Under the pieces are notes generated by a model that worked only from the letters and a program-made list of their open reading frames with translations, did no database searches and was not told where the DNA came from. This document shows positions 12,432-60,989 of a stretch of 64,000 bases of DNA, one piece after another; the stretch's first letter is position 1, and every line of letters starts with the position of its first letter. The translations under genes were made by a program, and so were the position numbers. Origin of the DNA: an uncultured Burkholderiales bacterium (GTDB lineage: Bacteria; Pseudomonadota; Gammaproteobacteria; Burkholderiales; SHXO01); the NCBI GenBank assembly GCA_964386195.1, contig CAYLTE010000003.1, forward strand, positions 99 through 64,098, read 5' to 3'.

Positions 12432-13634
12432 TCATCCTTTCACGCACAGCACCTGCTTCAGGGTGTGCTCAATGTCCACCAGTTCTACCTGGGCAGCCAT
12501 CACCGCGTCGATGGACTTGTACGCGGCGGGGGTTTCGTCAATCACCTCGGCATCCTTGCGACACTCCACGCCTGCAGTATCGCGGGCATGATCTTCCAGT
12601 GTGAAGCGCTTGCGCGCCTCATTGCGACTCATCGCGCGGCCGGCACCATGCGAGCAGGAGCAGAAGCTGTCCCGGTTCCCCTTGCCTCGGACGATAAAAG
12701 ACTTCGCACCCATACTGCCGGGGATGATGCCCAGTTCGCCCGCTTTAGCCGACACTGCGCCCTTCCGCGTGAGTAGAACATTCTCGCCAAAATGGCGCTC
12801 GAACGACGCGTAGTTATGGTGGCAATTCACTGCCATCTCGCCGGCAACCTCGACCGGCTGTACAAAATGCCGTTGAACCGCTAGCAGCGTTGCGTGCATC
12901 ATCTGGCGGCGGTTCTCCGCAGCGAAGCGCTGCGCCCAGTGCAACGCTTCCATGTATTCTCCGAAGTGCTGCGAGCCCTCGGGGATATACGCCAGGTCTG
13001 CATCCGGCAGGTTGATGAACCAGCGGCGCATGTCCTCCTTGGCCTTCTCGATAAAGTACTGCCCGATCGCGTTGCCAATGCCGCGCGAGCCAGAATGCAG
13101 CATCACCCATACCCGCTGGCGCTCATCCAGGCACATCTCGATGAAGTGGTTGCCGCCGCCAAGTGTGCCAATATGATGCGGTGCCCGCTGGGCTGCCCGC
13201 TCCAGCTTCTGATGTTTCGTTGTCGGCTTGGTCAGCCCGGCATACCAGGCACCATATCGCGGCGAACTGTGCGCGCCACGGTCATTCGGGCCGCCATTGT
13301 CAGTACGGCCGTGCGGGACGGCAGCTTCGATTGCACTGCGGATAGCGAACAGATTGTCCGGCAGGTCTTCCGCCGTCAAGTTAAGCGGCACGGCCATCAT
13401 GCCGCAGCCGATATCCACGCCCACTGCGGCGGGGATAATCGCCCCGCGGGTTGCGATCACACTGCCGACCGTCGCGCCCTTGCCGTAATGCACATCCGGC
13501 ATAACGGCAAGATGGGAATGGATGAAGGGCATCCGGGAAATATTGTACAGTTGCTGGCGGGCCTGGTCTTCAACCGGAACCCCGTCAGTGAACATCTTGA
13601 TCGGCACGCCACCTTCGAGTTTTTCAACCTGCAT
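12432..13634 (-). CDS. rtcB: RtcB-family RNA 3'-phosphate/5'-OH ligase
   Basis: Colinear RtcB signatures: MPDVHYGKG, GVDIGCGM, GTLGGGNHFIE, HSGSRG, NCHHNY, GSMG, SCSHGAGR. ATG at 13632-13634 with GAGG RBS; the ORF-track start at 13646 is a TTG. Confidence 0.93.
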   Translation of the reverse strand: MQVEKLEGGVPIKMFTDGVPVEDQARQQLYNISRMPFIHSHLAVMPDVHYGKGATVGSVIATRGAIIPAAVGVDIGCGMMAVPLNLTAEDLPDNLFAIRSAIEAAVPHGRTDNGGPNDRGAHSSPRYGAWYAGLTKPTTKHQKLERAAQRAPHHIGTLGGGNHFIEMCLDERQRVWVMLHSGSRGIGNAIGQYFIEKAKEDMRRWFINLPDADLAYIPEGSQHFGEYMEALHWAQRFAAENRRQMMHATLLAVQRHFVQPVEVAGEMAVNCHHNYASFERHFGENVLLTRKGAVSAKAGELGIIPGSMGAKSFIVRGKGNRDSFCSCSHGAGRAMSRNEARKRFTLEDHARDTAGVECRKDAEVIDETPAAYKSIDAVMAAQVELVDIEHTLKQVLCVKG

Positions 13635-13642
13635 AATCTGCC

Positions 13643-13855
13643 TCAATGATAAGTCATCTGGTCAGGCACACGGCACAGCCCGATGGACACAAGATACGCT
13701 GCCTGCTCCAGCAGTGCAGAGGGGACGCACTCCGCCTCGATCATGTCCTGCATCAGAATCACGATCTCCCAGGTGGACAGCAGCCCCGCCCGGAACGCGT
13801 GCCAGCGGCGCATCGGCACAGGCTCCCGGTAGTGCATGACATAGGCTTCGCTCAC
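13643..13855 (-). CDS. hypothetical protein (70 aa, GTG start)
   Basis: ORF abutting rtcB; no motif recognised. Confidence 0.55.
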   Translation of the reverse strand: MSEAYVMHYREPVPMRRWHAFRAGLLSTWEIVILMQDMIEAECVPSALLEQAAYLVSIGLCRVPDQMTYH

Positions 13856-15397: not shown

Positions 15398-15805
15398 TCA
15401 CACCTTCCTTTCTGTCGGCAGAGGGGGCAGCGGTTGCCAGCCAATTAGTTTTGGTCCGCAATGCTCAATGAATGACCGGTGCTCGTCTTGCCATTGCTCA
15501 GACGGTTCCGGGTAGTTCATTTCGGCAAGCGGTTGTTTCTTCCCTAGTCCGCGCCACAAACCATTAGTCACCAGAACAAACTCGTTTTCTGGCGCAGTCT
15601 CAATCGGCATCCACCCGCCATCATCCTTCTCCGCAAGCGCGGCGGTGATGCGGGCGCGACGGTTCCACATTTCTGGCTCAGCGCAAGCAGCGCATTCCTC
15701 ACACTCGACGTAATGCCAGTCTTTGCCGTCGCCTGTCTTGCCGAGACTTCTCGACACCAGTGCGCTCCCACAAAACGGGCACGGCAGCAGTTCATCGTTT
15801 GCCAT
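15398..15805 (-). CDS. Lar-like restriction-alleviation zinc-ribbon fused to a DUF551-like C-terminal domain
   Basis: N-terminal LLPCPFCGS...YVECEECAAC matches the recalled Lar family pattern. C-terminal GGWMPIETAPENEFVLV is DUF551-like. GAAGGAG RBS. Confidence 0.68.
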   Translation of the reverse strand: MANDELLPCPFCGSALVSRSLGKTGDGKDWHYVECEECAACAEPEMWNRRARITAALAEKDDGGWMPIETAPENEFVLVTNGLWRGLGKKQPLAEMNYPEPSEQWQDEHRSFIEHCGPKLIGWQPLPPLPTERKV

Positions 15806-16859
15806 GTTCGGACTCCTTCTTCCCGGCAGTGGCGCGGAGTAGGGCAGCGTTACGTTCGACGGATTCTTGCTCTGCATCGTGATACTGTGGAAGCAGTTTC
15901 CCGCCGCAATACTGGCACCATGCTGCATCGTTTTGATGCGGCCCGCCATCTGTAAATTCAAACACATGCCCGCAGGATGTGTTCCACGGCCCATCGGAAT
16001 CCTGCATCCACACGCAATGTGATTCTGCCACCGGCACCCGCACATGCGTCTGCTCGGATTGGGGTGCAGGCAGTATTGTGTCGCCAATATACGACGCGCC
16101 GACCGGCCCCATCGGGACCTTGCTGTAATCCTCTACATTGACCTGATCGGCTGCGCGGGTGATGGCTTCGCGGCACATCGCTATCACAGCATGGTCGCCT
16201 CGTTCTTTCTTGTTTTTGATGCATTCAACCAGAATACCCTTGCAAATCTCCGCCGCCCGCAGCATCCCCTCACGCACTCCTGACGGCGGGGCGGTGTAGA
16301 GGGGGCGTAACTCGTAATCCGCCCTGTCTTTAAGACACTTAGCTGTAGCCTCGTCTGCGTGTTGCCAAATTGACGGCCCTTCTTCTGGATCAATATAGCG
16401 TTGCTGCCACGCCACCGGCTCCCCCTGCGGCTGCGCTTCCTGCCAGTAGGCGCATCGTTGCTGATTGCTGGCGGCACACTTGCACGGAGGGGCTACGCAA
16501 CGACCCTGCGGCTGCGCGGAAAGGGCTTTGCGGCAATCAATCAGCAATCGCTCCAATTCTCTCGGCGGCATACTCATGTGTAGTTCAGCCGCAATGCTGG
16601 CGGCCCGTCGCTGCAAATACTCGGCGTCTATGCGGGCGTCCAGCCGCTTCACTAGTTCCTCGCGCTCACTCATGGCTTTCTCCTTTGACTGCGCGGCGGT
16701 GAGGGTGGCAAACATGGTTACAATATCTTTGCGACAATTAGCCCTCTCGTCATCAAGTCGCTTACATTCTTCTCCGTGTGCTGTTTCGTAATTCGCTTGA
16801 ATTGCCTCAAGCTCGTCTAACAGCGCCACCAGCGCGTCGGTGTCAGCGGGGGCGGTCAT
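15792..16859 (-). CDS. hypothetical Cys-rich protein (355 aa)
   Basis: Long ORF in the operon with ATGA coupling downstream; coiled-coil N-terminus; no family recognised. Confidence 0.75.
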   Translation of the reverse strand: MTAPADTDALVALLDELEAIQANYETAHGEECKRLDDERANCRKDIVTMFATLTAAQSKEKAMSEREELVKRLDARIDAEYLQRRAASIAAELHMSMPPRELERLLIDCRKALSAQPQGRCVAPPCKCAASNQQRCAYWQEAQPQGEPVAWQQRYIDPEEGPSIWQHADEATAKCLKDRADYELRPLYTAPPSGVREGMLRAAEICKGILVECIKNKKERGDHAVIAMCREAITRAADQVNVEDYSKVPMGPVGASYIGDTILPAPQSEQTHVRVPVAESHCVWMQDSDGPWNTSCGHVFEFTDGGPHQNDAAWCQYCGGKLLPQYHDAEQESVERNAALLRATAGKKESEHGKR

Positions 16860-22737: not shown

Positions 22738-22895
22738 GCTGCCTCCCGGTTCAGTTTGCGCACACGCGCCAGCGCTACGCGCTTGCTGCTGCAGCGCTGG
22801 ATTACTTCCGACGTGCATCCGGATTCACTGCGCTTTCGCACAGTGTAGCCGCGCGCCTCTTTTTGGATGAAATACGGACCGCCTAAAATGTTCAT
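22734..22895 (-). CDS. small basic ORF (53 aa), not in the ORF track
   Basis: ATGA overlaps at both ends (22892-22895 and 22734-22737). Product MNILGGPYFIQKEARGYTVRKRSESGCTSEVIQRCSSKRVALARVRKLNREAA. Confidence 0.55.
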   Translation of the reverse strand: MNILGGPYFIQKEARGYTVRKRSESGCTSEVIQRCSSKRVALARVRKLNREAA

Positions 22896-23140
22896 TTCTC
22901 CTGCCCTCCGAAAAGCACATCATACAGGTTATCAGTCCGGCGCATGGTCCGGGACCGCCGGCCGTTTCGCTTCAGCACTGCGACACGTGCACCATACTCC
23001 CGGCCGTAGCGCACCAGTCCGCGCGACTGCAGTGCGCGAAGCTGGCGCGATACCTGAGGCGTGACGATCATCACGCCGCCCATGGTGCGCAGTGCGCGAT
23101 AAGTCTCGCGCTGCTGAGGTGTCATTCGCTTAAACGACAT
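22892..23140 (-). CDS. putative winged-helix DNA-binding protein (82 aa)
   Basis: ...VSRQLRALQSRGLVRYGREYG... looks like a wHTH recognition helix and wing. Confidence 0.55.
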   Translation of the reverse strand: MSFKRMTPQQRETYRALRTMGGVMIVTPQVSRQLRALQSRGLVRYGREYGARVAVLKRNGRRSRTMRRTDNLYDVLFGGQEK

Positions 23141-23378
23141 AGCGCCCCCGCTCCCGAAGCAATTCAACATATGCCTGCTCCAGCAATCCAGCCGACTTGC
23201 GATAAGGATTGCCGAAGTAATTCAAATCCGGCACTTTCTTATAGCCGTCAAACCAGCCCGGCCCACGTGTATCCGCGCGCTGGCAGTGCGCTTGCGCAGC
23301 CTCCAGCGTGACGCGTGCTTTAATCAGCACGGTCGGTCCGGACTGCTGAAACCGCACAATATCGTATAACTGCGTCAT
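23130..23378 (-). CDS. hypothetical protein (82 aa)
   Basis: ATGA coupling upstream. Confidence 0.6.
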   Translation of the reverse strand: MTQLYDIVRFQQSGPTVLIKARVTLEAAQAHCQRADTRGPGWFDGYKKVPDLNYFGNPYRKSAGLLEQAYVELLRERGRYVV

Positions 23379-24433: not shown

Positions 24434-24522
24434 GTATGTGCCCCTTATCAGATTGAAGGATGATGCAGGGGCAATAATAGCATGGCCGTTTAAACGCATG
24501 CAACAATTATTTTCTGCAGGCG

Positions 24523-25134
24523 CTACCCTTTGCCCGCTAGCGCGCGCAGTGCGTCCCGGGCGATGCGCCATTGTCCCAGAGGCTGCAGGACGCGGTACGC
24601 GCGTTCACAGGCCATGCAGGACGCGCTGAGCCCATCCCGGCGCCGGGTGACTACCCGGTAGTCACTGGCGGGCTTGACGTGCCAGCAATCGGCGCAGCGC
24701 TTGCCTTGGGCCTTGATCCTTTCCTGCTCTGCCATGCGTGCCTGTTCCCGTTCGAGGATGCGCGCCAGCTTGGCCCGCTGCGCATACTCGGCGGACGTGA
24801 CTTTGACGGGTGCCACAGGTGCTACGCCCTTCGGCCGGCGCCCCTTCCGGCGCCTCAGGCAAGAGTTACAGGTATCGCCCTTGCGTGCTTCGCCCGGGAA
24901 CCATGCGAAGTAACTGGCCGGTCTCGCCTTGTGACACTTGGCGCACTCCCGGGTGTATGGCATGGCGCGCAGTGCCTTGACCCGGGCGTACCGGAGCGCA
25001 GCGCGCATGGCCTGAGTATCCCGGAATGCGCCGGTGATGCAGTAGTCACAGCGCTTGGCGTCATGGGTGTAGCGGGTTAGCGGGCGTGCTAGGCCGCACT
25101 GAATGCAGAGTTTAGCGGGCTTGCGGTAGCGCAT
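24523..25134 (-). CDS. first leftward gene: Cys-rich (multiple CxxC) basic protein
   Basis: GGAGG RBS. CIQCG, CDYC, CAKC, CNSC, CADC and CMAC pairs suggest several zinc ribbons. Confidence 0.7.
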   Translation of the reverse strand: MRYRKPAKLCIQCGLARPLTRYTHDAKRCDYCITGAFRDTQAMRAALRYARVKALRAMPYTRECAKCHKARPASYFAWFPGEARKGDTCNSCLRRRKGRRPKGVAPVAPVKVTSAEYAQRAKLARILEREQARMAEQERIKAQGKRCADCWHVKPASDYRVVTRRRDGLSASCMACERAYRVLQPLGQWRIARDALRALAGKG

Positions 25135-25154
25135 TGGAGCCTCCGAGAGGGAAA

Positions 25155-25195
25155 ACTATCACGATTTGGGACAGACTATCATCGGGACTATCACG
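25155..25195 (-). promoter_or_regulatory. three direct copies of (C/A)GTGATAGT-like motif facing the leftward operon
   Basis: Plus-strand actatcacg (25155-25163), actatcatc (25175-25183) and actatcacg (25187-25195), 20-60 nt upstream of the leftward start codon. Confidence 0.55.
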
Positions 25196-25435
25196 CTGTT
25201 TCGCGTGTAAGTCATTGAATAGTGAGACATGGAGTTAATAAAACAGTTCGCAGCACTAGGTGCACAGGTTATGAGCGGTTTTTATTATCTGGGAGGGTGG
25301 CAGTCACGCTGGATACAATCGCGCACGCTCGCGCACGCGTACTTCTAAAATGTAATGTATGGTATTCATGATAGATAGCCGTTTTCATATACACATCAAT
25401 GGCTTATCGTAACTCCATGACGATTGTAGGGACAT

Positions 25436-25452
25436 GGATAGTCCCACTATCC
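25436..25452. promoter_or_regulatory. perfect inverted repeat GGATAGT-ccc-ACTATCC (operator-like)
   Basis: Read directly; shares its core with the flanking direct motifs. Confidence 0.6.
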
Positions 25453-25578
25453 GCTGTTAAAACAAGCACTTAGCCCACTCGCCCCTCTGGCGCCCTCGTG
25501 CTGCAGCCTCACTGCGCACCATCGCCACATGTCACGCGGTGAAAACGCGCCGCATTCGCCACACATCGCCGGCCAGAA

Positions 25579-25736
25579 TCGTGATATTCCTCGCACATTC
25601 AATGACTTAGCTGCAGCGCAGTCTCGCTGCGGGACAGCGGTATATCGTGATAATCACTGCAGAATCAACGAGTTACGAGCGTGCTGCAGCGGGACAGGCA
25701 GACAGCGAAACGGCGGGACATTCGATCGGCGGGACG
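25579..25736 (+). repeat. imperfect ~64-bp direct duplication (TCGTGATA ... GCTGCAGCGGGACAG) plus two further GCGGGAC copies
   Basis: TCGTGATA at 25579 and 25645. GCGGGACA at 25629, 25689 and 25713; GCGGGACG at 25729. Palindrome GTGATAATCAC at 25647-25657. Confidence 0.7.
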
Positions 25737-25903
25737 GGGCTTGGGGGGCCAGGCGCGCGGGGTGGCGGTCGTGTTACCCCCGCTCGCAGATCGCAAGCCA
25801 TTTTTACTATCCCGTAAAGAAATTTACAAAAATATTCCGCTATGTAAAGTGATTTACGCCTCAAGGGGTAGCGTAAAATTTTTTACCTTGTCATACTGTT
25901 CTC

Positions 25904-26101
25904 ATGAGTACAATTTTTTTGCTGCCTTCGCCGGACCTTGTTCTTCGGCTTGAGACCCGCGCGCAGATCCGTCGAAATGCGATTACGCGCAAAAGCGTTC
26001 AAGACGGAGCACCGGATCGGATCGCAGATCTGCTTGAGGAAGCGGCAGCCGAGCTCCGCCGTGTGAATGCTATTCTGGAAAAATTAAATCATGCTGCGTG
26101 A
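25904..26101 (+). CDS. hypothetical protein (65 aa), first rightward ORF
   Basis: ORF with no clear SD; short leader if the TAAAAT -10 is used. Confidence 0.45.
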   Translation: MSTIFLLPSPDLVLRLETRAQIRRNAITRKSVQDGAPDRIADLLEEAAAELRRVNAILEKLNHAA

Positions 26102-26315
26102 ACCACTCACGTTTGACAACGCCACTGGGCGAATTATTGATCCCGTAGCCCCCGTGCAAATAGAGGACATCATTGATAAAGGTGCTCCCTCTGCGCGGGC
26201 GGCCGCGGGCTTCGGCCCGACGCGAAAAATGCTGGATACCGCGCCAATCCACACCGCCCCCTGGCTGACGCCGGAATTGGCGGAGCAGGAAATGGCGATC
26301 GGAGGCTTCAAGTGA
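26091..26315 (+). CDS. hypothetical protein (74 aa)
   Basis: Overlaps its neighbours by 11 nt and 4 nt in the operon direction. Confidence 0.55.
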   Translation: MLREPLTFDNATGRIIDPVAPVQIEDIIDKGAPSARAAAGFGPTRKMLDTAPIHTAPWLTPELAEQEMAIGGFK

Positions 26316-26821
26316 GCGAGCCCACAAACGCGCTACCGGAAATCTCCACGCAACGGCAGGCGCAGCGACTGCAGGCGATCCCAGCCGTGTACAAGACCCA
26401 GTACGGTCGGCTCGCGATGGAGCTCGCGCTGAAGCTGGATGAGCCTGCGACAATATTCGCAAAGCACGGGTACGATCAGGACGGCGCACTGGCCCTGCTG
26501 GACACCGCAGAATTCACCGCGCTGCTGGTCAACGCGGAGAAGGAAGTCAAGGAATCCGGGCTGTCGTTCCGCACCAAGGCCCGCGCGATGGCAGAGGATC
26601 TGCTGACGCACGGTTACGAGATCGCGACCGACGATCTGGCCAGCGCCAGTGTGCGCGCGGACCTGATCCAGTGGTTTGCACGCATTGGCGGGCTCGAACC
26701 GCCGAAAGCGGACGGAAAAGATTCGGGTAGCGGCGGCGGGATCAACCTGACGCTGAACTTTGCAGGCGCACCGCCGCAACACGTTGTTGGCGGCGAAACA
26801 TTGACCATTCAAGGAAACTGA
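26312..26821 (+). CDS. possible terminase small subunit (169 aa, GTG start)
   Basis: Position upstream of terminase large, size, helical N-domain and Gly-rich C-tail. No diagnostic motif. Confidence 0.45.
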   Translation: MSEPTNALPEISTQRQAQRLQAIPAVYKTQYGRLAMELALKLDEPATIFAKHGYDQDGALALLDTAEFTALLVNAEKEVKESGLSFRTKARAMAEDLLTHGYEIATDDLASASVRADLIQWFARIGGLEPPKADGKDSGSGGGINLTLNFAGAPPQHVVGGETLTIQGN

Positions 26822-27261
26822 TGAGCTACTTTGTTGACTTCATGCGCGAGAGCAACTGGATCGAGGGCATCAAGCGCCCGCCGACTCAGGAGGAAGTTAC
26901 GGCACTGAAAGATTTCCTCGCAGTGCCGGTCGTGACGGTCGCCGCGCTGCAGGACTTCGTGAAGGTGTGCCAGCCGAACGCGTCCGTGCGCGCGCACCTG
27001 GGCCAGGACGTTCGCGTCGGCAACCACGTCCCGCCGCCCGGTGGCAAGGCCCTGGTCGAGGAGTTCAAGGCGCTGCTGAAGAAGATCAACGCCGGCGCAC
27101 TGAACGCTTACCAGGGGCACTGCGCGTACGAGACGCTTCACCCGTTCACCGACGGCAACGGTCGCTCGGGCCGTGCACTGTGGCTGTGGCAGATGCGCGG
27201 GGACGCGCCGCTCGGGTTCCTGCACACGTTCTACTACCAGACGCTGAGCGCACTGCGATGA
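26821..27261 (+). CDS. minimal Fic-domain protein (146 aa)
   Basis: Canonical Fic motif HPFTDGNGRSGR. N-terminal SNWIEG matches the (S/T)xxxE(G/N) inhibitory-helix motif. Confidence 0.88.
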   Translation: MSYFVDFMRESNWIEGIKRPPTQEEVTALKDFLAVPVVTVAALQDFVKVCQPNASVRAHLGQDVRVGNHVPPPGGKALVEEFKALLKKINAGALNAYQGHCAYETLHPFTDGNGRSGRALWLWQMRGDAPLGFLHTFYYQTLSALR

Positions 27262-27506
27262 GCGCCCGCGTGTTCGTGCATCCGCGGTGCTGCACGCCGC
27301 CTGCTTCGACTGTGTTCGAGAGCACGTTGCTGCAGCACGGGTTCGACCTGAAGCAGGTCATGATCGGCCCGCGGACGCCCGGCGGGAACCGGGAGCTTGT
27401 CCGTCTGGTCGAAGAGGAAGGTGTGAAGCAGGTGTTCGAGCGCATGGACGGCACGCGGTTCGCGCACCGCATGGGGCAGATACACAGTGCGCCGGAGGTG
27501 GCGTGA
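27258..27506 (+). CDS. hypothetical protein (82 aa)
   Basis: ATGA coupling to the Fic stop. Confidence 0.6.
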   Translation: MSARVFVHPRCCTPPASTVFESTLLQHGFDLKQVMIGPRTPGGNRELVRLVEEEGVKQVFERMDGTRFAHRMGQIHSAPEVA

Positions 27507-27685: not shown

Positions 27686-27891
27686 TCCCTGATACCGGCA
27701 TCCGCAGCGCACGCTGGGTCATGCGCAGCCTGAACGGCTCACTGTGGGCCACGCGGGATCGCTACACCACCGCGCAGGTGCGGAAGTTCCAGCTTGCGAC
27801 ACCGGTGCGCCCGATCGAGGGCATCGCAGCGCACATCGTGAAGTCTGGCACGCTGAGCGCGGCCGACAAGTACGGACTGGGCCTAGCATGA
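27682..27891 (+). CDS. hypothetical protein (69 aa)
   Basis: ATGA coupling at both ends. Confidence 0.55.
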   Translation: MIPDTGIRSARWVMRSLNGSLWATRDRYTTAQVRKFQLATPVRPIEGIAAHIVKSGTLSAADKYGLGLA

Positions 27892-29375
27892 TCGACATGA
27901 ACATCAGCTTCCCGCCCACTGTGTCCGCGTACATGCAGTCGGACGCGCGGCACCGGTACATCGTCGGGCCGTTCGGCTCGGGCAAGACGGTCGGGAGCAT
28001 CACAGAGTTGATCCGCCGCTGCGCCATGCAGAAGCGATCGACACTAACCGGCAAGCGCAAGAGTCGCTGGGCCGTGGTGCGCAACACCATGCCGGAGCTT
28101 CGCGAAACGACGATGAAGTCGTTCTTCGACTGGTTCCCGGATGGTTCGATCGGGCGGTACATGAGCACGACGAAGACCTACCACGTGAACCAGGGCGACA
28201 TCGAAGCCGAGATCGTGTTCTGCGCGTTGGACGATGAGCGCGACGTGAAGAAGCTCCTGGGTATGGAGCTTACCGGCGCGAACCTGGCCGAGTTCCGCGA
28301 GATCCCCCGCGCGATCGTGGAGACGCTGGACGGCCGCCTCGGGCGGTACCCACGGATCACCGAGGGCGGCCCCTCCTGGGTCGGCATGTGGGGGGACTCG
28401 AACATGCCGGAGGAAGAGTCGTACTGGTGGGCGAAGATGGAAGGGCGGAACCCGGACGACATCAAGAGCGCGATGCCGAACGACTGGGCGATATTCAAGC
28501 AGCCCGCGGCGATGATCCGACACGGTGCGAACACAGCCACGACCCGTGCAACGTACACGCTGAACCCGCTCGCGGAGAACCTGGCGAACCTGCCGGCGGA
28601 CTACTATCCGAACCTCGTCAAGGACAAGAACGACGACTTCATCCGTGTCAACGTGCTGATGGAGTACGGGCGCACCAAGGGCGGCAAGCCGGTGCACCCC
28701 GAGTTCGATCGCTCGATCCATGTGGCGCCACGAGTGATCGTGCCCAACCCGGAGCTTGTGCTGCTGTTGTGCGCGGACTTCGGACTGACCCCCGCCATGG
28801 CGCTGAAGCAGCAGGACGCGTTCGGGCGGGTGCTGACCCTGGACGACATCGCGTGCTTCGACATGGGGATCGAGAAGGCGCTGGACCTCAAGATGATTCC
28901 GCTGCTGAAGAAGAAGTACGAGGGCTACGAGATCGTCGTCACGGGCGACCCGTCCGGCGAGAGGCGCTCGGACAGCGATGAAACTACGTGTGTTGACATT
29001 TTCAAGTCCCGTGCGTACAAGAAGTACTTTCGCAAGGTGCGCATGGCTTCGACCAACGCGGCACTCGCGCGCCGGGAGGCGACAGATCACTTCCTGACTC
29101 CGCGGCCGGCAGCGTATCTCGTGAGTCCGAACTGCGAGGCGACCATCGCCGCGCTGGGCGGGAAGTTCATGTACAAGAAGCACAAAGATGGCCGACACTC
29201 GGAAGAGATCGACAAGAACGATGAGTCGCACATCGGCGAGGCCAACGAGTACGGAGACCTGTACTTCAAGGAGGGGCGTCGTAGGAAGGCGGAGCAGCGC
29301 CCGGACCAGTTGAACTGGGAAGAAGCATACCGGGCACAACGCACCACGGGCAACCACTACGCGCAACCGCGCTGA
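27888..29375 (+). CDS. terL: terminase large subunit
   Basis: Walker A GPFGSGKT and Walker B-like VFCALDDE, with C-terminal nuclease-like acidic motifs. Immediately upstream of the portal gene. Confidence 0.88.
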   Translation: MIDMNISFPPTVSAYMQSDARHRYIVGPFGSGKTVGSITELIRRCAMQKRSTLTGKRKSRWAVVRNTMPELRETTMKSFFDWFPDGSIGRYMSTTKTYHVNQGDIEAEIVFCALDDERDVKKLLGMELTGANLAEFREIPRAIVETLDGRLGRYPRITEGGPSWVGMWGDSNMPEEESYWWAKMEGRNPDDIKSAMPNDWAIFKQPAAMIRHGANTATTRATYTLNPLAENLANLPADYYPNLVKDKNDDFIRVNVLMEYGRTKGGKPVHPEFDRSIHVAPRVIVPNPELVLLLCADFGLTPAMALKQQDAFGRVLTLDDIACFDMGIEKALDLKMIPLLKKKYEGYEIVVTGDPSGERRSDSDETTCVDIFKSRAYKKYFRKVRMASTNAALARREATDHFLTPRPAAYLVSPNCEATIAALGGKFMYKKHKDGRHSEEIDKNDESHIGEANEYGDLYFKEGRRRKAEQRPDQLNWEEAYRAQRTTGNHYAQPR

Positions 29376-60710: not shown

Positions 60711-60736
60711 GCGGCCTTCGGGCCGCTTTCTTTTTT
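60711..60736. terminator. bidirectional intrinsic terminator
   Basis: GCGGCC-ttcg-GGCCGC followed by TTTCTTTTTT on the plus strand and by TGTTTTATT on the minus strand. Confidence 0.8.
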
Positions 60737-60812
60737 GGTTGCGGGAGAGGGATTTGAACCCTCGACCCTCTGGGTATGAACCAGATGCTCTGCCAGGCTG
60801 AGCTATCCCGCG
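60736..60812 (-). tRNA. tRNA-Met(CAU) with initiator-type C1xA72 acceptor end but elongator-like body
   Basis: Hand-folded cloverleaf CGCGGGA-TA-GCTC-AGCCTGGCA-GAGC-A-TCTGG-TTCATAC-CCAGA-GGGTC-GAGGG-TTCAAAT-CCCTC-TCCCGCA-A-CCA. Confidence 0.85.
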
Positions 60813-60820
60813 ATTGATCT

Positions 60821-60896
60821 TGGCAGACACCCAGGGAATCGAACCCCGCGCAGTCGGATTTGGAGTCCAACTCGCCACCTTGGGACATTGGCGCCT
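60821..60896 (-). tRNA. tRNA-Trp(CCA)-like, with a defective D-stem
   Basis: Acceptor AGGCGCC/GGTGTCT (two G:U pairs). Anticodon arm TTGGA-CTCCAAA-TCCGA. T-arm CGGGG-TTCGATT-CCCTG. CCA encoded. D-stem TGTC/GCGA pairs at only 2 of 4 positions. Confidence 0.62.
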
Positions 60897-60912
60897 GCAG
60901 TACTTTTACAAC

Positions 60913-60989
60913 TGGTGCCCGAGGCATGGAGTCGAACCTGCGACCGTCCGCTTACAAGGCGGGTGCTCTACCGGCTGAGCTACAAGGGC
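60913..60989 (-). tRNA. tRNA-Thr(UGU)-like, with a bulged T-stem and two acceptor mismatches
   Basis: D-arm GCTC-AGCCGGTA-GAGC is perfect and the anticodon arm CCCGC-CTTGTAA-GCGGA pairs at four of five positions (27C/43A unpaired). T-arm GCAGG-TTCGACT-CC(A)TGC has an extra A. Acceptor GCCCTTG/CTCGGGC is mismatched at 5:68 and 6:67. Confidence 0.62.

Follow-up and report, generated by a model that had tools for sequence, protein, structure and literature searches.

A 769-nucleotide gap between two divergent gene arms (positions 25135–25903) carries an array of short repeats in the 64,000-nucleotide stretch of contig CAYLTE010000003.1 analyzed here, hereafter called the window, which is most of the genome of a lytic-type phage of about 60% G+C. 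The repeats in this gap, the control region, constitute a real array that is confined to the region and is under purifying selection with fixed spacing. With moderate confidence, we propose from sequence comparison that they form an operator array, bound by a clade-encoded, sequence-specific DNA-binding protein that would control divergent transcription. Comparison with related phages yields a map of the control region that comprises exchangeable specificity sites, conserved partner elements resembling sites for integration host factor (IHF), and a conserved, predicted promoter of the extended −10, leaderless kind that would serve the packaging and structural arm.

The repeats greatly exceed chance expectation, which we derived from 2000 dinucleotide-preserving shuffles of the 769-nucleotide region. 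GATAGT occurs six times on the two strands against a shuffle mean of 0.32, TGATAnT five times against 0.42, and CGTGATA four times against 0.13. None of the 2000 shuffles matched the observed count for GATAGT or TGATAnT, and the fraction reaching it for CGTGATA was 0.0005. In an unbiased k-mer count, ACTATC was likewise one of the leading 6-mers and CGTGATA one of the leading 7-mers. A preliminary description of this DNA had called the motif over-represented, and counting across the window bears this out: GATAGT averages 0.17 copies per 769 nucleotides outside the region against six inside. A position-weight scan of the window returned its top four matches all within the control region, and no comparable site was found at gene starts elsewhere in the 64 kb, the one single site (15876–15887) lying inside an open reading frame (ORF). 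This best outside match, CAGTATCACGAT on the minus strand, stands directly before an ATG that is in frame with a second ORF of the Lar-like zinc-ribbon type (15398–16087).

The individual copies first described are present: ACTATCAC/T three times on the plus strand (25155, 25175, 25187), TCGTGATA at 25579 and 25645, and the perfect palindrome GGATAGT-ccc-ACTATCC at 25436–25452. Of two additional half-sites, ACTATCC stands at 25806–25812, while TGATAGA is actually at 25369–25375 and not at 25368–25374.

Relatives define which parts of these copies matter. We gathered metagenomic relatives using three anchors: the large terminase, a conserved 169-residue protein, and the zinc-ribbon protein encoded by the first gene of the leftward arm. 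The same motif occurs in three phages, loci L104, L105/L106 and L107, whose neighboring proteins are 62–72% identical to those of the window. In a four-way alignment of the intergenic regions of the window and these same-motif phages (alignment A8), five core sites are invariant at 43 of 53 columns, compared with 35% of all intergenic columns. The conserved columns identify the core as TATCAYG, the reverse complement of CGTGATA, with the GATAGT hexamer only its edge; the full consensus is (A/G)(C/G)TATCA(C/T)G(A/C)T, or RSTATCAYGMT. Three direct copies (L1–L3) stand beside the leftward gene, 21–61 nucleotides upstream of its ATG, and two inverted copies stand on the right, within modules M1 and M2:

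25155–25166, minus strand: core site L1, ACTATCACGATT on the plus strand and AATCGTGATAGT in the leftward reading, 21 nucleotides upstream of the leftward ATG and closely followed by GGAGG, the ribosome-binding site; 10 of 12 columns invariant.
25174–25182, minus strand: core site L2, GACTATCAT, 20 nucleotides from L1; 8 of 9 columns invariant.
25187–25195, minus strand: core site L3, ACTATCACG, 12 nucleotides from L2; 6 of 9 columns invariant.
25578–25610, plus strand: module M1, core site ATCGTGATATT (25578–25588; 10 of 11 columns invariant), then 10 nucleotides and the IHF-like element TCAATGACTTAG (25599–25610); direct repeat.
25645–25676, plus strand: module M2, 66 nucleotides after M1, core site TCGTGATAATCA (25645–25656; 9 of 12 columns invariant) followed by the IHF-like element AATCAACGAGTTA.

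All five core sites point toward the operon they flank, as originally claimed for the copies. Their spacings, 20 and 12 nucleotides on the left and 66–67 on the right, are retained in L104, L106 and L107. The remaining copies are less well kept:

25367–25375, plus strand: weaker site CATGATAG, retained as CATGATAAT in two of three relatives.
25436–25452, no strand assigned: the palindrome, with 4 of 7 columns invariant in its left half and 3 of 7 in its right half (25446–25452).
25806–25812, minus strand: ACTATCC copy, not conserved in L104 or L102.

Judged by these alignments, the left half of the palindrome alone is conserved among relatives and the right half is not, and the copy at 25806 is probably incidental or lineage-specific.

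More distant relatives retain the layout and change the sequence. Relative to the first rightward ATG, sites of the window lie at −322 and −256, each followed by a copy of a second element, TCAAYGNNTTR, at −305 and −239; a central group lies near −460 to −535, and the left cluster at −717 to −749. Loci L001, L003, L004 and L022 share this map, with conserved elements at −297/−242, −315/−239, −263 and −273, respectively, and in L001 and L003 a module of site plus IHF-like element lies at about −300. The repeat of these four loci is CYGCCTWA, present in 6–8 copies where 0.1–0.17 are expected and absent from the remaining 6–12 kb of each locus outside the control region. Locus L002 has four tandem copies of GGTCCCTCA. 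Apparent further variants occur in L010, L023, L024 and L102, with weak post hoc statistics (P about 0.01).

The comparison of L102 with L104 shows the exchange most tellingly. Their neighboring right-arm proteins are equally near that of the window (71 and 70%), yet their repeats differ. The IHF-like elements and downstream conserved block of L102 align with the window, and at the M1 and M2 site positions it carries CTAAC/CCTTAT-type repeats, the M2 position reading CCTAAC/GCCTTATA. This swap beside retained flanking DNA marks the repeat as an exchangeable specificity element, one that is not tied to the packaging arm. What travels with the repeat type are the genes directly on its left, the zinc-ribbon gene among them. 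Site sequence thus differs between related phages while layout is kept, as expected of repressor-operator switch regions.

Two functions had been suggested for the repeats at the outset, and only one of them fares well. Binding sites for a phage regulator are favored by the conserved islands, the fixed spacing, and the different repeats that relatives carry at the same positions. Phage-specific promoter elements are disfavored, since the sites are absent from other intergenic DNA, no phage RNA polymerase was detected, and the CYGCCTWA and GGTCCCTCA repeats of relatives are not −10-like. The polymerase gene was missing among the window ORFs scanned, a scan in which sigma factors were not specifically sought. 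Together, confinement to one region and the lack of a detected phage RNA polymerase argue for sites of a clade-specific protein rather than dispersed promoters.

The second element, TCAAYGNNTTR, accompanies the sites. The region has four copies where 0.02 are expected, and the remaining 63 kb of the window has none. All relatives conserve the element, which in most cases follows a tract rich in T or in A+T. The copy in M2 (25664–25676) perfectly matches the IHF consensus, WATCAANNNNTTR, and is a candidate IHF site. Single mismatches to that consensus separate the copies at 25395–25407, at 25597–25609 and, as reverse complement, at 25208–25220. Two of these elements lie outside the modules:

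25208–25220, minus strand: TAAGTCATTGAAT, IHF-like and inverted, the perfect reverse complement of 25597–25609; 7 of 13 columns invariant.
25340–25407, plus strand: AT-rich stretch, at 72% A+T over 60 nucleotides the AT-richest interval, ending in the IHF-like element CATCAATGGCTTA (25395–25407), which is invariant at 10 of 12 columns in A8.

All relatives examined have an AT-rich stretch followed by TCAATGG, with A+T reaching 83%.

Which protein reads the sites? The best candidate is the product of the gene next to the left cluster, an assignment suggested by gene neighborhood that we would put at roughly one in three:

24523–25134, minus strand: multi-zinc-ribbon gene, the first gene of the leftward arm, encoding 203 residues with three CxxC...CxxC zinc ribbons.

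This is the only gene beside the site cluster in every same-motif phage, where homologs of 92, 72 and 62% identity adjoin the same TATCAYG cluster. Its N-terminal ribbons are clade-specific, and its C-terminal ribbon is common across clades. The C-terminal ribbon alone forms the first leftward gene product in L010, L023 and L024, and the N-terminal part does so in L004 and L022. Family matches are weak, to Lar-like and EndoVII zinc ribbons only. An AlphaFold2 model (predicted local distance difference test score 71.6) gave no significant fold match in the PDB (best Foldseek E = 0.2).

Two other candidates fell away. The winged helix-turn-helix-like product of 22892–23170, named at first as an alternative binder, has no homolog in the syntenic interval of the same-motif locus L105. 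The 65-residue first rightward product (25904–26101) was considered as a ribbon-helix-helix binder and rejected: it belongs to a near-invariant family found in unrelated contexts, and it is replaced in L104, which keeps the motif. That family has a nearly invariant core, RKSVQEGAPDRIADLLEEAAAE, and no Pfam domain, and a member also stands beside smpB on a 77-kb contig.

As an operator, the array would work over about 500 bp, with five high-affinity-looking sites, two or three weaker ones, and three or four IHF-like bending sites. The three left sites would lie over the −10, the start point and the leader that are predicted for the leftward (early) operon. The GATAGT of L3 is −10-like and pairs with a −35-like ATGACT at 25215–25210 across a 17-nucleotide spacer, the sole such geometry upstream of the leftward gene; it could be the −10 of a weak leftward promoter. 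The same nnGACT-17-GATAG(T/C) geometry appears in L104 (AGGACT) and L107 (GGGACT). L2 would then fall at about +1 and L1 at about +20, just before the ribosome-binding site, a classical shut-off arrangement in which occupancy of the left sites would turn the leftward operon off. Were the binder the adjacent zinc-ribbon protein, this would amount to autoregulation. M1 and M2 each hold a rightward-facing, −10-like GATAWT and might be weak upstream promoters that are occluded likewise; alternatively, they might anchor a loop to the left cluster through IHF-type bending. We infer the identity of the binder, the promoter positions, IHF binding and the direction of regulation. The early/late switch first suggested for the sites would be a plausible role.

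Several observations weigh against an operator. The predicted leftward promoter is weak, matching 8 of 12 consensus positions, and the right modules lie 250–320 nucleotides upstream of the rightward core promoter, too far for simple occlusion. Family scans of the flanking ORFs found no recognizable repressor fold (helix-turn-helix or ribbon-helix-helix) beside the sites. For the zinc-ribbon protein in particular, phylogeny confounds its co-variation with the motif, the first gene of L013 is not of the zinc-ribbon kind, and L023 and L024 have fairly similar N-terminal ribbons yet, on a tentative reading, different repeats. Finally, the AT-rich segment, IHF-like sites and direct repeats fit a replication origin equally well.

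The main rival to the operator is an origin, since iteron origins, too, are marked by direct repeats, inverted copies, an AT-rich core and IHF sites (PMC4980987). The repeats would then be recognized, in the manner of iterons, by a phage initiator such as the zinc-ribbon protein or the C-terminal part of the 884-residue primase-helicase; they would flank an AT-rich unwinding element whose melting IHF-type bending would aid, and co-evolution of initiator and site would explain the clade-specific motif. We consider this possible but doubtful. The features do fit the general architecture of iteron origins (PMC4980987), with direct repeats, inverted copies, IHF-like sites and a core of 72–83% A+T in genomes of about 60% G+C, in all relatives. 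The motif also travels with the left arm, which bears the replication genes. The cumulative GC-skew minimum falls here as well, but it is not independent evidence, since the direction of transcription switches at the same place. The repeat dimensions point the other way. Typical iterons measure 17–22 bp with phasing of about 22 bp, whereas the units here are 9–12 bp at spacings of 12, 20 and 66 nucleotides. No consistent DnaA box occurs in the region at up to one mismatch, and ORF family scans detected no Rep-type initiator domain near it. The strongest sites are 150–260 bp from the AT-rich core. The three direct sites lie about 150 bp from that stretch and abut the ribosome-binding site of a gene, and no 13-mer repeats were seen. 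One complex may serve both operator and origin functions.

It is quite improbable that the copies are simply −10 elements (GATAGT, GATAAT, GATATT) of outward-facing host sigma-70 promoters, without a dedicated binder. In each of the five core sites there is indeed a hexamer that faces the flanking operon and has A as its second and T as its sixth base, and L3 has the nnGACT-17-GATAGT geometry. However, conservation runs past the hexamer into TATCAYGAT and its flanks, −35 elements are poor or absent, and none of the five core sites passes consensus scans. Three −10 boxes 12 and 20 nucleotides apart make little promoter sense, and the repeats of relatives at the same positions are GC-rich, lack the A at position 2, and are not −10-like.

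Least credible is a packaging site of the cosB or pac type, with the repeats as small-terminase sites and an IHF site upstream of packaging genes as in lambda cos: the large terminase gene does begin 1.8 kb downstream, the repeats do occur in both orientations together with IHF-like sites, and several relatives' metagenome contigs do end in or near the region, but these ends scatter over several hundred nucleotides without a pile-up, the region is internal in the window and likewise in the 64-kb contig from which L024 comes, the motif fails to track the right arm (as the equally near proteins of L102 and L104, at 71 and 70%, attest), and no small terminase was identified, the conserved 169-residue protein (26312–26821) having no Pfam, PHROG or PDB-sequence match. 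Given the same scatter, we found no support for a fixed physical end of the genome here; the hypervariable left arm is the likelier cause of the contig breaks.

Beyond the array, the control region contains further conserved elements:

25221–25275, no strand assigned: conserved non-coding block (...GACAT...AAAACAGTTCGCAGCACTAGGTGCACAGGTT...), with 24 of 34 columns invariant across 25237–25270 in four phages.
25713–25805, plus strand: strand-asymmetric, G-rich block (GGCGGGAC...CTTGGGGGG...CCCCCGCTCGCAGATCGCAAGCCATTTTT) with GCGGGAC repeats, runs of G6 and C5, a short hairpin and a T-run; conserved in 11 loci (alignment A3).
25814–25827, 25844–25857 and 25873–25886, plus strand: three GTAAA-N4-TTTAC dyads with perfect 5-bp arms, about 30 nucleotides apart, upstream of and overlapping the rightward core promoter.
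25889–25906, plus strand: rightward core promoter, an extended −10 TGT CATACT (25889–25897) followed after exactly 6 nucleotides by the ATG at 25904.

The rightward core promoter lies outside the site array and is not overlapped by it. Its TG, the A2 and T6 of the hexamer, and the 6-nucleotide gap are invariant in 14 loci (the 11 of A3 plus L102–L104), giving the pattern TGn, NANA(C/A)T. Extended −10 geometry with a 6-nucleotide gap places the predicted start point at the A of the ATG, which implies that the mRNA of the packaging and structural arm is leaderless. In relatives the dyads take the form GTAAA-N4-TTGAC(A) and resemble sigma-70 −35 regions, and L013 has an identical GTAAAGTTATTGACA-18-GATAAT promoter-like site. 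The dyads may be sites for a conserved dimeric factor.

The G-rich block might be a weak terminator, or a segment prone to R-loops or G-quadruplexes. A structured RNA in its G-run and C-run was rejected when RNAalifold returned four pairs and zero compensatory changes, and an Rfam scan of the whole window found tRNAs only. GGGAC, with seven plus-strand copies, was also set aside as a separate motif family: its left-cluster copies are not conserved in L104, L106 and L107, and those on the right are part of the G-rich block. No promoter, RNA or site could be assigned to the 25221–25275 block. In L106 (1934–2010, reverse strand), AT-rich DNA and an Endonuclease_7-family gene take the place of the entire rightward promoter block (window 25800–25903), beginning directly behind the conserved T-run at a sharp mosaic junction. 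On the opposite side, directly downstream of the zinc-ribbon gene, a sigma-70-like promoter, TTGCAT-18-TATTAT after TG, lies at 24470–24503 on the minus strand, so that transcription of the genes farther along may not depend on the control region.

These elements allow a more ambitious form of the operator proposal, which we regard as speculative and unlikely. The zinc-ribbon protein would be a modular DNA reader whose N-terminal ribbons read the exchangeable 9–12-bp sites and whose C-terminal ribbon reads TCAAYGNNTTR or GTAAA-N4-TTKAC. The resulting nucleoprotein complex, about 500 bp long, would link shut-off of the early arm with the firing of the leaderless late promoter and perhaps with activation of an origin. 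Were this true, strictly lytic phages would possess a novel class of regulator whose specificity can be swapped.

The control region divides the genome into two arms:

25134 down to 1, minus strand: leftward arm, with genes for the zinc-ribbon protein, small proteins without assigned function, SprT-like, HNH, hexapeptide transferase, RtcB, family A DNA polymerase, exonuclease and helicase.
60.7–63.9 kb, minus strand, as the leftward arm: primase-helicase and three tRNAs.
From 25904, plus strand: rightward arm, with genes for small proteins, the conserved 169-residue protein, a Fic-like protein, the large terminase (27744–29375), portal, major capsid and a 2491-residue virion-type protein.

The replisome genes, a family A polymerase and the 884-residue primase-helicase, are of the T7/P4 type. 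The tRNA cluster (Met/Trp/Thr; 60736–60989, minus strand) sits where both arms converge, and the RtcB-type RNA ligase is encoded at 12432–13646 (minus strand); together they could serve as a tRNA-repair counter-defence. Between the genes for the 169-residue protein and the terminase, a Fic/DOC-like protein (26821–27261) is kept in L009, L010, L013, L100, L102 and L103. All relatives have, upstream of the terminase, a conserved gene of about 84 codons (27258–27506, MSARVF...) that longest-ORF calling overlooks. It has diverged in a different pattern from its neighbors: the L004 and L001 products are 37% identical, against 85% for the 169-residue protein.

This phage belongs to a widespread clade of environmental, podovirus-like phages of about 64 kb from groundwater and soil metagenomes, in which gene control is almost unstudied. 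A DNA search with the control region against 50,697 phage records gave zero matches. The nearest cultured phages are very distant, at 27–35% protein identity: the Pseudomonas phages KPP25, phiR18 and Rollin, and the Rhizobium phage RHph_TM3_14A. Synteny with Rollin, KPP25 and RHph_TM3_14A was abandoned as a guide given that distance and their different gene order, and a literature search found no transcription study of these three among the papers listed. A search of 185,579 GTDB genomes gave one distant match only and no prophage relatives, and lysogeny genes were not specifically sought. The natural site swaps at fixed positions amount to a built-in specificity experiment that could identify the regulator. 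They could also show lytic phages diversifying regulatory or origin specificity as temperate phages diversify immunity.

Several known systems resemble the array in part. The operator of phage Mu has sites O1, O2 and O3 with an IHF site between the divergent promoters Pe and Pc. Here too, predicted divergent promoters are parted by arrays of short candidate repressor sites in both orientations, with an IHF-like site inside, and the heteroimmune phages Mu and D108 similarly differ in site sequence while keeping the layout. Unlike Mu, this phage looks strictly lytic, its array is about 500 bp long and includes three or four IHF-like sites, and no Mu-type repressor, transposase or lysogeny gene turned up, although lysogeny genes were not specifically sought. 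Short tandem sites are also bound by small regulators at the Cox boxes of P2, the Apl boxes of 186 and the omega heptads (WATCACW) of pSM19035. The likeness lies in units of 7–9 bp set about one helical turn apart, direct or inverted, at promoters. There is even a similarity between the core TATCACG and the omega heptad, though probably a coincidental one. The copies here differ in not being contiguous, and ORF scans detected no Cox/Apl-type or ribbon-helix-helix protein. The Ogr and Delta proteins of P2 and P4 are zinc-finger late activators, small CxxC proteins that act on phage promoters. They show that zinc-ribbon transcription factors do exist in phages and share with our candidate the build of a small, CxxC zinc-binding phage protein. 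The candidate differs in having three ribbons in 203 residues, in being encoded by the first early gene rather than acting as a late activator, and in having no sequence-family match to them.

Iteron origins such as those of pSC101, R6K and RK2 (oriV) combine direct repeats, an AT-rich segment and an IHF site (PMC4980987). The control region shares with them direct and inverted repeats, an AT-rich segment, an IHF-like site and replicon-specific repeat sequences, and with pSC101 the placement of repeats beside a gene start, as in repA autoregulation. It differs in that its sites are half the length of iterons, their phasing is not 22 bp, and DnaA boxes and a Rep-family gene were not detected. 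The array is thus of a known general kind, that of operator and iteron arrays with IHF sites, found here in an unstudied, apparently lytic clade, with a possibly unusual binder and a natural exchange of specificity.

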